Virus record (IMG/VR): IMGVR_UViG_2671180680_000011
Direction: 5' to 3' (one strand)
DNA length: 4,079 bases
Origin: a virus
Taxonomy: Duplodnaviria; Heunggongvirae; Uroviricota; Caudoviricetes
Part shown: piece after piece, positions 48-4,079 of the stretch
Layout: each line of letters starts with the position of its first letter
Position numbering within the stretch: position 1 is the stretch's first letter
Made by a program: the position numbers and the translations under genes
The notes under the pieces: generated by a model
What the model was told of the DNA's origin: nothing
Database searches by the model: none
The model's input: only the letters and a program-made list of their open reading frames with translations

Positions 48-401
48 TTAAAAAAAGAACAAATGGTAGTGTCCGCTATTGCCAGTACACCTCAATTGCT
101 CTGCGGCTTCGCTCAGAGCTGGCGTATGTTCCCGGCCTACTGATTCACACAGGTAATCAACGAAACCGGACACCAGTTTTCGTTCGCGAGGCGTGATCGC
201 CCCACCGACCGGAGTCCAGTAATCGAAACCCAGTTGCAGGAGTTTGAAAAAACGCTTGTGGAATGCGTAGTTACACACACGCTTAAAGTCTGCGTGTATC
301 CACTCACCTATTTTGATTTGATGCAGAAAATCGCAACTCTCCGGCGTCGCCGGGAGAAGTAATCCGGAAGAGGTTTGTTTGACCAGTTGTATATGTGCCA
401 T
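48..401 (-). CDS. Hypothetical protein, 117 aa from the ATG at 401 (alternative 131-aa form from a TTG at 443); second gene of a two-gene operon
   Basis: Long ORF on the minus strand. The internal ATG at 401 is preceded by GGAGA about 6-7 nt upstream; the ORF-track start at 443 is a TTG overlapping the upstream stop. No family recognised (sequence contains FDYWTPVGG and a Cys/His-rich C-terminus). Confidence 0.5.
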   Translation of the reverse strand: MAHIQLVKQTSSGLLLPATPESCDFLHQIKIGEWIHADFKRVCNYAFHKRFFKLLQLGFDYWTPVGGAITPRERKLVSGFVDYLCESVGREHTPALSEAAEQLRCTGNSGHYHLFFF

Positions 402-439: not shown

Positions 440-727
440 TCAATCCTGCTCAAGATTGTAGATGAGTTTATTCTTCAGCAAAAGCAGAAAACCAGCCTTA
501 AAACCAATCTCTTTCAAAACCCGTAATGATGTGACAAATTCGTCCTCACGCAAAATAAAACCGTCCGTCAGAAGTCCATTACAAAAATAAAATAACACAG
601 CACCGCTCTTCCTTTGTTGAGATTGCAAACATCTAATGCGGCAATGGCTGACAATCGCTCCATTCTCAACGCGCACAGCATAGAGGCCATTTTCACTAAA
701 AATTTCACGCAATTCTTCGATTTTCAT
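440..727 (-). CDS. Hypothetical protein, 95 aa; first gene of a two-gene operon
   Basis: ATG at 727 preceded by AAGGA about 8 nt upstream; stop TGA at 440-442; candidate promoter upstream at 809-836. No family recognised. Confidence 0.5.
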   Translation of the reverse strand: MKIEELREIFSENGLYAVRVENGAIVSHCRIRCLQSQQRKSGAVLFYFCNGLLTDGFILREDEFVTSLRVLKEIGFKAGFLLLLKNKLIYNLEQD

Positions 728-976: not shown

Positions 977-1132
977 TTACTTCCTGGATTCGTAGTCTAC
1001 GAAGACAGCGACCTCCGTCTGGCCGGTTCGGATTCGTACCTCACAGAGGTCTTTCCTCGTTACCAGTGCCGTCACTATGACGGTTAAACAGATGACGATC
1101 AGGGCGATTAACATCGCCTTTTGCTGCTTCAT
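977..1132 (-). CDS. hok: Hok/Gef-family type I toxin, 51 aa, small membrane peptide
   Basis: Translation MKQQKAMLIALIVICLTVIVTALVTRKDLCEVRIRTGQTEVAVFVDYESRK closely matches chromosomal Hok/Gef/RelF toxins as recalled (single TM helix, conserved R-K-x-L-C-E motif); AAGGAG Shine-Dalgarno about 7 nt upstream of the ATG at 1132. Confidence 0.85.
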   Translation of the reverse strand: MKQQKAMLIALIVICLTVIVTALVTRKDLCEVRIRTGQTEVAVFVDYESRK

Positions 1133-1189
1133 AGCCTGCTTCTCCTTGCCTTTCGGCATGTAAGAGGCTAACCTACATGTGCAAAGCAT
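977..1189 (-). CDS. mok: mok-like reading frame (in-frame N-terminally extended ORF covering hok)
   Basis: ATG at 1189 with GAGG about 8 nt upstream; the extension MLCTCRLASYMPKGKEKQA resembles the extension of chromosomal mok frames as recalled. Confidence 0.5.
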   Translation of the reverse strand: MLCTCRLASYMPKGKEKQAMKQQKAMLIALIVICLTVIVTALVTRKDLCEVRIRTGQTEVAVFVDYESRK

Positions 1190-1245
1190 GAAATTGGCCT
1201 CAGATTAATGTTAAGCGTCTTGCCGGACGCGTAATGTTAACTGGG
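1175..1245 (+). ncRNA. sok: Putative sok-like antisense RNA covering the mok start; coordinates approximate
   Basis: Position inferred from hok/sok architecture. Weak plus-strand promoter candidate TTGCCT (1146-1151), 17-nt spacer, TAACCT (1169-1174); hairpin 1215-1230 downstream. No clean terminator seen. Confidence 0.2.
1206..1240. repeat. 9-bp direct repeat TAATGTTAA (1206-1214 and 1232-1240) flanking a hairpin (GCGTC 1215-1219 with GACGC 1226-1230) in the hok leader/sok region
   Basis: Exact repeat and inverted repeat read directly from the sequence; function unknown. Confidence 0.3.
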
Positions 1246-1308
1246 GCTTTTCTCTATCTGCCTTTTGGTGTTCATGCCTGAAGCAGATAGCCTCAAGCAC
1301 CCGCAGTC

Positions 1309-1359: not shown

Positions 1360-2046
1360 TCACTCCTTCTCTTCTTTACCGTAGTGGAGTTGACCAATTT
1401 TGATAAGAGGGCGTCCCTGAGATTTGCGGTGTAGATTGGTATCGCGCAGAGAATACACACAGCCACAATATTCCTGCTGATAGAATTTTTCGCGCTTGCT
1501 GATTTCAATCATACGGGACGAGCCGCCCTGCTTGCGCCAGTTATAATCCCAGTACACCATGCCCGGATAATGCGCGACGGCTCGCCGCCCACAGTCGTTA
1601 ACCTGCTGCATATTTTTCCAGCGTGAAATGCCCAGTGAACTGCTGATCACACTGAAACCATTTTCAGCGGCGTACAGCGCTGTCCGCTCAAAACGCATGT
1701 CAAAACACATGGTGCAACGGATCCCTCGTTCGGGCTCCCATTCCATTCCTTTGGCTCGTTCAAACCAGTTGTCTGTGTCGTAATCAGCATCAATAAACGG
1801 CACGCCGTGTTGTTCAGCAAAGCGAATATTCTCATCCTTACGAATTAAATACTCTTTCTGAGGATGAATGTTCGGGTTGTAGAAAAAGATGGTGTAGTCG
1901 ATTCCCGAGGCCTGAAGCGCCTCCATCACCTCACCGGAACATGGAGCACAGCAAGAGTGCAGTAGTAGTTTGTTTGCCCCGTTTGGGAGCTCCAATTTGG
2001 GCCGTTTGAAATCAGCAACTGTCATAAATATGTTTATTGGGGTCAT
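1360..2046 (-). CDS. queH: DUF208/QueH-family protein (epoxyqueuosine reductase-like, Fe-S), 228 aa
   Basis: Contains the family-typical motifs [38 protein letters not shown] and YCGCVYS. Start is uncertain: ATG at 2046 or 2025, neither with a strong Shine-Dalgarno. Stop TGA at 1360-1362. Confidence 0.8.
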
Positions 2047-2107
2047 AAAAATATCAAAGAGTGTAGCATTAGAACGGGGCTATCGGAAACAGATGTGTGA
2101 CTGCTCC

Positions 2108-2123
2108 CCGCCCTTTCGGGTGG
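2108..2123. other. GC-rich hairpin in the intergenic region upstream of the QueH-like gene
   Basis: CCGCCC-TTTC-GGGTGG (6-bp stem with one G-U pair); on the minus strand the loop reads GAAA. No U-tract on either strand, so not a canonical terminator. Confidence 0.2.
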
Positions 2124-2193
2124 TCTCCTGATGATTTGAGGGTGCAGAAATCCCTCCGGTTAAGGATTAAATTTTTAACAGTGCTAAATTTAA

Positions 2194-2550
2194 TTATTCA
2201 GTTCTGGATTTTGTCGCCCTGCGTATCCGCGCTTTCGCGTTACGCTCAATCTGTATCAGCTTTTCTATATTTCTCCGCCTTTCCTGTTCCTCCTGGCGCA
2301 ATAGCCTTACATCATCTGCCAGTCTGGTTTCTCTTTTTGCCACAGAGAGCATCCAGTCAAACGGCTCCACAACCGCACCGCAGATTTTACAGCGGACCTG
2401 ACGCTCTTTTTCGTCAACCCGTACAGAGGCGTGATGGCAATATGGTCTTTCCGATGGCTCATAAAGAAAATTAACCTGATTACGAGGGTCATCCTCTTTT
2501 ACCGGAAATAAAACGATATTGCTTAACTCATCTTCTGGTTTTATTTCCAT
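2194..2550 (-). CDS. Hypothetical small protein, 118 aa, with a putative Cys/His zinc-ribbon-like motif and a charged C-terminal coiled-coil-like tail
   Basis: ATG at 2550 preceded by a strong AAGGAGAGGAG Shine-Dalgarno (AGGAG 6 nt upstream). An in-frame alternative ATG at 2607 directly abuts the upstream stop (TGAATG). Motif C-H-H, 12 residues, C-x2-C; tail rich in R/E/K. No family recognised. Confidence 0.6.
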   Translation of the reverse strand: MEIKPEDELSNIVLFPVKEDDPRNQVNFLYEPSERPYCHHASVRVDEKERQVRCKICGAVVEPFDWMLSVAKRETRLADDVRLLRQEEQERRRNIEKLIQIERNAKARIRRATKSRTE

Positions 2551-2607
2551 GCTCCTCTCCTTTGATGCGAATGCCAGCGGTAATTGAAGCCTGATAGCTA
2601 ATTTCAT

Positions 2608-2830
2608 TCACAGTATCGCCTCCTGAAAATTACCCTGATAGAAAGCCAGTACACGCTGCATAGCTTCGCTCTTCCGGCACTCGCGACAGATTATATTCAG
2701 GCGCCTGTCGTAGCGGCGTATTTCTCCGTCAGGTAATGACCAGATAAGGTCCGGATCAACAACAACCGGTTTCCTCACCTTTACTCTCGAGAGTTTTTTG
2801 CGGGCGCTTTGCCAGTCCTTGCGAGCCTGT
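2608..2830 (-). pseudogene. 3' fragment of a gene truncated by the IS911-like insertion (73 host-encoded codons)
   Basis: The reading frame is open right up to the IS boundary at 2830/2831 with no internal start; the ORF-track start is a GTG at 2856 inside the left inverted repeat. Stop TGA at 2608-2610 overlaps the next gene's alternative ATG. Confidence 0.45.
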
Positions 2831-2866
2831 TGAAGTGGCACACTGAATTTGGCCACCTGAACAGAG
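2831..2866. repeat. Left terminal inverted repeat (IRL) of the IS911-like element
   Basis: TGAAGTGGCACACTGAATTTGGCCACCTGAACAGAG; first 8 nt and the GGCCACC core match the reverse complement of the right end. Confidence 0.8.
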
Positions 2867-2902
2867 GTGATATGCTCACCTCAGAACAACACAGGTGCTC
2901 CA

Positions 2903-4079
<1,177 letters not shown>

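Follow-up and report, generated by a model that had tools for sequence, protein, structure and literature searches.

The window analysed here, that is, the whole stretch of 4079 bp from the Caudoviricetes record IMGVR_UViG_2671180680_000011, raises the question of what queH, the gene of a tRNA-modification enzyme, does in a piece of lambdoid prophage, when Escherichia coli already encodes QueG for the same reaction, the conversion of epoxyqueuosine (oQ) into queuosine (Q). The original prediction, made from the sequence alone, placed queH in an operon of three genes disrupted by an insertion sequence (IS), and saw in it the most likely undescribed module of the window, with QueH perhaps in a different or accessory role. 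The answer favoured here is another one: it is probable, though well short of certain, that queH is stand-alone cargo of the prophage and that its product is an ordinary QueH, which would give a last step of Q synthesis independent of vitamin B12.

Identity, spread and origin of queH

Regarding the identity of the product, the assignment to the QueH (DUF208) family of what had been read as a 228-aa protein held: Pfam PF02677 (DUF208) was matched over positions 1-174 of its 175 with 220.6 bits and E=1.9e-65 (gathering score 23.5), and phmmer found QueH of Thermotoga maritima (TmQueH) in the PDB with E=5e-22. The cysteine pattern of the family, CCxxC ... RCxxC ... YCGC, is present in the window protein; C25, C26, C104, C107, C187 and C189 are all in place and are invariant in the family, in alignments that go down to 36% identity and include TmQueH, and we take these cysteines to be the ligands of a [4Fe-4S] cluster and of an extra iron. 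The AlphaFold2 (AF2) model of the protein, with a predicted local distance difference test score (pLDDT) of 94.8, superimposes on PDB entries 9d86 and 7lc5 with a target-normalised template modelling (TM) score of 0.92-0.93 and a root-mean-square deviation (rmsd) of 1.2-1.3 Å over 180 columns, the values for 7lc5 being 0.93 and 1.2 Å; the next structural matches are TtuA-type enzymes, with E ∼1e-5, and the modelled fold is adenine-nucleotide alpha-hydrolase-like. By its sequence and its model, the 221-aa protein is a genuine member of the QueH family, and such membership predicts a cobalamin-independent epoxyqueuosine reductase.

A further residue, C29 (window positions 1939-1941), falls at the position of Asp13 of T. 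maritima and is a cysteine in every other homologue examined; TmQueH is the odd one out at this probable metal or catalytic site. The PDB includes C9S and D13N (9dco) mutants at the equivalent positions of TmQueH.

As for annotation, the gene was already described, since the Prokaryotic Genome Annotation Pipeline (PGAP) gives the name "epoxyqueuosine reductase QueH" in every match listed. The PHROGs family phrog_3217 matches the protein with E=1.7e-138 and carries the label "unknown function", an annotation gap for phage genomes, as the family is plainly QueH. The QueH domain also stands at the C-terminus of some longer cluster representatives (P0245, 1398 aa; P0258, 824 aa; P0248, 761 aa; P0255, 719 aa), which may be fusions or gene-calling merges.

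The start codon of queH is most likely ATG 2025 and not ATG 2046, from which the longest open reading frame (ORF) would give 228 aa. This choice follows from three comparisons: PGAP calls ATG 2025 (221 aa), the orthologues are 217-222 aa long, and the extension of seven codons between 2046 and 2025 has three amino-acid changes in phage HannyBb, against 97.7% identity in the remaining protein.

Regarding its distribution, queH is an accessory gene in E. coli, as had been expected: it occurs in 995 of the 5426 complete genomes (∼18%) and always as a single copy, while queG is found in all 5426. Identity between the window protein and chromosomal QueH is 89-92% for Scandinavium, Kluyvera and Enterobacter, and 80-86% for Erwinia, Photorhabdus, Providencia, Pantoea and others; where the chromosomal loci were inspected (Scandinavium, Kluyvera, Enterobacter and Photorhabdus), queH has ordinary chromosomal neighbours and not phage genes. 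The prophage copies differ from one another by 12-20 synonymous and 1-3 non-synonymous changes, with a ratio of non-synonymous to synonymous rates (dN/dS) of 0.02-0.04, a range that covers the prophage copies, the Photorhabdus comparison having been set aside for a frame-shifting indel; by these counts, purifying selection on queH in the phage lineage is strong. Most likely, a temperate phage took the gene, its putative native promoter included, from the chromosome of a relative within the Enterobacteriaceae.

The limits of the captured piece can be drawn from four prophage contexts, in which the block of homology around queH runs from ∼80 nt before the start codon to ∼10 nt past the stop; base composition across this cassette is unremarkable. 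Upstream of the gene, the only block invariant between the prophage copies and the chromosomal orthologues is TGcTACACT on the minus strand at 2068-2060 (TG at 2068-2067, then c, then TACACT at 2065-2060), ∼35 nt before ATG 2025; the flanks are otherwise unalignable. The orthologues that share the block, as TGnTACA(A/C)T, are those of Scandinavium, Kluyvera, Enterobacter and Symbiopectobacterium, where it lies at -37 to -44 from the queH start codon, and related TGnTAnnnT motifs are found in the same interval in further Enterobacterales. We infer that TGcTACACT is a putative extended -10 promoter native to queH. Downstream, a terminator scan of the minus strand was negative from 1190 to 1360, so that queH showed no terminator of its own. 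Between conserved phage modules, queH is present in some prophages and absent from others at one and the same site, and homology breaks off sharply at its borders, as is typical of a moron; most likely, judging from these comparisons, it is an autonomous, self-contained cargo gene and not part of a module.

The prophage remnant around queH

The window has three parts: the end of an IS600, a lambdoid prophage fragment of 2.7 kb (95-2830) and a complete IS911. Its features are the following.

1-94, unstranded: end piece of an IS600 (IS3 family), which bounds the remnant on the left
95-401, minus strand: 5' half of a DUF1367 gene (PHROG label NinB/Orf-like), cut by IS600; Pfam PF07105, profile positions 1-102 of 198, and phrog_319
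440-727, minus strand: phage ORF of 95 aa, function unknown; phrog_340
977-1302, minus strand: hok/sok type I toxin-antitoxin locus; Pfam HOK_GEF, Rfam sok, PGAP hokD
1360-2025, minus strand: queH, 221 aa, intact; Pfam, PDB match, cysteine set and AF2 model
2060-2068, minus strand: putative extended -10 promoter of queH; conservation with chromosomal orthologues
2194-2550, minus strand: gene of a zinc-ribbon protein, 118 aa; phrog_1621
2608-2830, minus strand: 3' end, 74 codons long, of a winged-helix gene (DUF977 / Ren-like), cut by IS911
2831-4079, plus strand: complete IS911 (IS3 family); Pfam HTH_Tnp_1 and rve, and PGAP naming in the matches

All genes of the remnant are on the minus strand, and the three ORFs of the predicted operon, read at their longest, are indeed co-oriented (1360-2046, 2194-2607 and 2608-2856). 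An uninterrupted copy of the locus, which the original prediction had proposed to retrieve, is present in E. coli FDAARGOS_944 (NZ_CP065613.1), with 99.9% identity over 95-2831, in a prophage at ybhA/modC. In this prophage the genes follow one another as cro, ydaT, an O-like gene, ydaV (DnaC-like), DUF977, the zinc-ribbon gene, queH and hokD, and then the 95-aa ORF, DUF1367, DUF1364, DUF1133, four tRNA genes, the lysis genes and the head/terminase genes. The fragment at 95-2830 is a decayed piece of a lambdoid prophage, from the early-right (ren/nin-like) region, which has the replication genes on one side and the late antiterminator on the other; the three ORFs are co-oriented because all of them belong to one transcription unit, the rightward early unit of a phage of the lambda type. 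The DUF1367 protein has 199 aa in the intact prophage L001, where the four tRNA genes (Ile, Arg, Thr and Gly) lie at 10367-10677, before the lysis genes, and none of them is a queuosine substrate.

The same position is held by queH in an O157:H7 prophage, in a prophage of the avian pathogenic E. coli (APEC) strain O1 and in the sequenced phage HannyBb, in whose annotation it is listed as hypothetical. In IMG/VR, queH is on at least 212 viral contigs, of which the best 80 loci were used for the locus counts given below. The exact QueH and zinc-ribbon protein sequences are filed under Shigella sonnei and under "MULTISPECIES Enterobacteriaceae", each on at least 1000 contigs; with the IS600 and IS911 flanks, these matches make S. 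sonnei the likely source of the window. The exact IS911/DUF977 junction has no match among species-representative genomes, and no database entry was found for the chimeric ORF of 82 aa.

Both ends of the remnant are cut by IS elements, and the earlier view, which considered a single IS, needs correction on the IS600 side. On the left, megablast matched 1-94/123 to the ends of copies of the "IS3-like element IS600 family transposase" in ∼3000 E. coli genomes, and prophage homology always begins at 95. On the right, the truncation of the upstream gene by an IS was borne out: an IS3-family element starts at 2831, exactly where the homology of NZ_CP065613.1 with the window stops, and the upstream ORF encodes the C-terminal portion of a DUF977 protein. 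This element has the hallmarks of IS911, namely terminal inverted repeats (TGAAGTGG...), orfA and orfB with an A6G -1 frameshift site, and a DDE (rve) domain; its left terminal repeat (IRL), read from the sequence, is TGAAGTGGCA..., orfA spans 2903-3205, the A6G site is at 3154-3160, orfB runs up to 4071, and the right repeat (IRR) ends at 4079 with the window. In two of the matches, PGAP gives the label "IS3-like element IS911 family transposase". The remnant is hence bracketed by two different IS3-family elements; two IMG/VR loci (L090 and L092) have exactly the same IS600 junction and a DUF977 gene that is still intact.

Sister loci have IS911 at other points. In window-equivalent positions, three independent junctions are at 2120/2121 (L091, L093 and L101), at 2257/2258 within the zinc-ribbon gene (L095) and at 2830/2831 (the window), and they come from IS-mediated deletions or rearrangements, because the DNA beyond each IS is unrelated. 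All three junctions spare queH, ∼95 nt upstream of it, and hok/sok, and QueH stays 100% identical.

As for the hok/sok locus, both of its components are present, a Hok/Gef peptide and the sok/hok-mRNA RNA element. The peptide matches PF01848 (HOK_GEF) with E=9.8e-23, and the RNA element matches the full RF01794 model with 117 bits, against a gathering score of 59; hok spans 977-1132 with an in-frame mok-like extension to 1189, and the sok match spans 1127-1302. The locus is intact, encodes a HokD-like toxin of 51 aa, and lies 230 nt downstream of queH. Other prophages carry different genes there: in O157:H7 at Z1626 (L002, 2806-4816) a cytosine methyltransferase and a restriction endonuclease of the NgoMIV family stand in the place of hok/sok, of whose upstream region a piece is still joined to queH, and in the APEC O1 prophage (L004) a Doc-family toxin is found in the region downstream of queH.

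Possible roles of the phage QueH

All steps of the Q pathway are encoded in E. coli and Shigella, which cannot make vitamin B12 de novo. Since QueG needs B12, the phage QueH would likely free the last step of Q synthesis from the supply of this vitamin. QueH is reportedly a cobalamin-independent oQ reductase (Zallot et al. 2017; Li et al. 2021; see also PMC13443448). In the mechanism that we propose, the enzyme would reduce epoxyqueuosine (oQ34) to queuosine (Q34) in tRNA-Asp, tRNA-Asn, tRNA-His and tRNA-Tyr by means of a [4Fe-4S] cluster and an adjacent iron, with no cobalamin, and would act as a B12-independent back-up isozyme of the B12-dependent QueG of the host. In lysogens and in dead remnants the gene would be transcribed from a promoter of its own, to which read-through from pR would be added in intact prophages during lytic growth. 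The enzymatic activity, the function of the promoter, the benefit of B12 independence and the direction of capture are all put forward here as likely rather than as observed. The queuosine pathway is summarised in PMC9508795, and the passages of PMC6850298 that report Frey 1988 state that oQ stays in the tRNA of cells grown without B12.

Several points weigh against this reading. The B12-related benefit may be small in the gut, which normally supplies corrinoids, and hok/sok alone, rather than queH, could explain why this piece of prophage resists deletion. The promoter proposal is built on comparative conservation, because a generic promoter scan left the minus strand from 2046 to 2194, TGcTACACT included, without a call; moreover, TACACT fits four of the six -10 positions, and no Shine-Dalgarno sequence precedes either candidate ATG of queH (2025 or 2046). 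An Rfam E-value search of the whole window returned only sok, with no cobalamin or preQ1 riboswitch and no other regulatory RNA. Finally, NCBIfam release 20 had no family for the four proteins tested, QueH among them, so the PGAP name must rest on other evidence.

A bolder form of the proposal is that queH is a lysogenic-conversion gene, which by its own promoter would uncouple the oQ-to-Q step from the supply of B12 and from BtuB, and that in S. sonnei the benefit was strong enough for repeated IS911-mediated deletions to remove everything upstream while always sparing queH. This extension is held tentatively, as a possibility that is somewhat more likely to fail than to hold.

Among the alternatives, the one that survives best is that queH serves the lytic growth of the phage, being transcribed from pR and completing Q34 to tune phage translation or the host response; we regard it as unlikely, yet as deserving some weight, and it is compatible with the cargo reading rather than exclusive of it. 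The gene lies in the rightward early unit, on the same strand and with no terminator-like site between DUF977 and queH, it is carried by the genome of a sequenced phage (HannyBb), and a 2026 Shewanella preprint describes that phage infection raises Q via induction of queG and ties Q to phage resistance (10.64898/2026.03.05.709803). However, the fraction of NAU codons in the intact prophage is 0.52 (0.49 in the structural genes), that is, not enriched, the phage tRNA genes specify Ile, Arg, Thr and Gly, which are not Q substrates, and queH remains intact and identical in IS-bracketed remnants that are incapable of lytic growth.

Much less probable is that queH is a neutral passenger, kept because it is linked to a post-segregational killing locus, hok/sok, which lies 230 nt downstream and would penalise deletions of the segment. 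It is true that hok/sok is intact, that it follows queH in 64 of the best 80 IMG/VR loci, and that what survives of the prophage is precisely the stretch around it; still, the low dN/dS among prophage copies denotes constraint at the protein level, and linkage to hok/sok gives no protection against point mutations or IS insertions inside queH. In addition, queH occurs without hok in O157:H7 Z1626, where an NgoMIV-type restriction-modification (R-M) system follows it, and in 14 of the 80 IMG/VR loci.

The functional operon of DUF977, zinc-ribbon gene and queH, with QueH in a different or accessory role alongside its partners, has a still lower standing, and we find it hard to sustain. The three genes are co-oriented and close together in the window and in NZ_CP065613.1, and DUF977 is directly upstream of queH in most prophage copies: in the best 80 IMG/VR loci, it lies 193-199 nt upstream of queH in 62 and hok lies 231-245 nt downstream in 64. 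Nonetheless, the comparison of neighbourhoods did not recover the trio as a recurrent unit, being contiguous in 2 of the 5426 complete E. coli genomes and in 10-13 of the 80 IMG/VR loci, all of the window's own lineage; the three genes fail to co-occur elsewhere, which the original prediction had itself named as grounds for giving the module up. The zinc-ribbon gene is in 13 of the 80 IMG/VR loci and in 1680 of the E. coli genomes, mostly without queH and elsewhere beside ead/Ea22-like or other genes, and DUF977-like sequence is in ∼3900 of these genomes, against 995 with queH. Most often, as in O157:H7 Z1626 and APEC O1, queH comes straight after DUF977 and the zinc-ribbon gene is missing, and neither gene flanks the chromosomal orthologues, whose identity is 89-92%. 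Such a mosaic is usual in lambdoid cargo regions, and what remains of DUF977 is, like the zinc-ribbon gene, most likely an unrelated mosaic neighbour of queH and not its partner, the zinc-ribbon gene being an optional mosaic insert.

The spacing of the genes points the same way. The gap of about 150 bp before queH was correct, with 147 nt from the zinc-ribbon stop (2194) to the first ATG of queH (2046). As for the TGAATG junction, the string is real, at 2605-2610, and the tight linkage read from it is probably an artefact of the choice of the longest ORF, because ATG 2550 is the most likely start of the zinc-ribbon gene; the operon reading thus depends there on a start codon that is probably unused. 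ATG 2550 is preceded by AGGAGAGGAG, PGAP uses the same start, and the homology of the gene stops at ∼2579 in other prophage contexts; from ATG 2550 to the DUF977 stop the spacer measures 57 nt.

Regarding the two neighbours themselves, which had been called unrecognised, this holds in part. DUF977 is a recognised winged-helix Pfam family, with the PHROG label "Ren-like exclusion protein"; the remnant is its C-terminal part (profile positions 81-134 of 134), and the intact protein in NZ_CP065613.1 has 140 aa. The other is assigned to phrog_1621, a narrow family of unknown function restricted to Enterobacterales prophages, and its description as a zinc-ribbon protein proved sound: C38, H40, C54 and C57 (CxH...CxxC) are invariant in 27 homologues, as is, almost entirely, the conserved basic C-terminal helix (EEKxRRxNIEKLIQIERNAKARIRR). 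Its AF2 model, with a moderate pLDDT of 73.5, predicts a small TFIIB-like ribbon and one long helix (63-117); the Pfam Zn_Ribbon_TF match was below threshold and the PDB gave no significant match, the best being the N-terminal ribbon of TFIIB with E=0.24 over 27 columns. Some database entries of this protein are fused or merged with ead/Ea22-like, DUF977 or DUF1133 ORFs. Neither QueH nor the zinc-ribbon protein nor the 95-aa ORF had a PADLOC match, and for DUF977 there were only sub-threshold helix-turn-helix (HTH)-type matches.

Lastly, that the phage QueH acts on a non-tRNA substrate (such as 7-deazaguanine in phage DNA) or in defence or anti-defence has next to no probability: phages do use Q-pathway enzymes for DNA modification (PMC6884629) and the cargo genes of the nin region are often defence genes, yet the 26.7 kb of the intact prophage hold no DpdA/tRNA-guanine transglycosylase (TGT)-like or preQ0-synthesis gene, PADLOC gave QueH no match, and 89-92% identity to housekeeping-type chromosomal queH leaves little room for a new specificity.

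Comparison with known systems

The reading of queH as stand-alone prophage cargo combines known and less familiar elements. The QueH family, its chemistry and the redundancy of QueG and QueH are already known, and the PGAP name is on the gene in ∼1000 complete genomes; what the present analysis brings is a cargo gene of lambdoid phages that is a housekeeping-type tRNA-modification enzyme. Our search of the literature for phage- or prophage-borne QueH found no paper discussing one, and the 2019 virus survey (Hutinet et al., PMC6884629) reported no QueA, QueG or QueH homologues in the viruses that it analysed. If the phage QueH is an active enzyme, roughly one E. coli strain in five would finish queuosine without B12, as S. 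sonnei apparently would too, while the other strains depend on it; differences between strains in the Q/oQ status of their tRNA would then be a prophage-encoded trait, of relevance to the part of Q in NAU-codon translation, biofilm, virulence and phage resistance, and it would no longer hold that the Q-pathway genes of phages are limited to the early, preQ0 part of that pathway. The overall effect is incremental.

The closest relatives of the window protein are TmQueH (7lc5) and the products of the chromosomal queH genes of Enterobacterales, with which it shares a full-length family match, the invariant cysteines and a modelled fold at 1.2 Å; with the chromosomal genes it shares also 80-92% identity and the upstream TGnTACA(A/C)T motif. 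The differences are that chromosomal queH is a stand-alone locus, whereas that of the window is in a lambdoid prophage, and that the position of Asp13 of T. maritima is a cysteine in the window QueH, as in nearly all members of the family. As for QueG (YjeS) of E. coli, it performs the same last step, from oQ34 to Q34, on the same tRNAs and in the same cells, but it has an unrelated fold, it uses cobalamin and two [4Fe-4S] clusters as cofactors, and it is core where queH is accessory.

Lambdoid morons, such as bor and lom of lambda and the variable genes between P/ren and Q, are a further term of comparison. Like these and other nin-region cargo, queH is present or absent at a fixed position, has sharp boundaries and a putative promoter of its own, and the cargo found near it comprises hok/sok, Doc toxins and R-M systems; it differs from them in that no terminator-like site of its own was found between 1190 and 1360, and in being a tRNA-modification enzyme and not a surface, toxin or defence protein. 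Queuosine-pathway genes are also borne by phages in the 7-deazaguanine clusters (DpdA with FolE, QueD, QueE and QueC), which insert preQ0-derived bases into DNA (PMC6884629); the window instead has a lone QueH with no transglycosylase. Finally, Staphylococcus aureus likewise holds in one cell two redundant oQ reductases with different cofactors, a cobalamin-dependent QueG and an iron-dependent QueH, which are differently expressed (PMC13443448); there both enzymes are chromosomal, whereas here the second one comes from a prophage.

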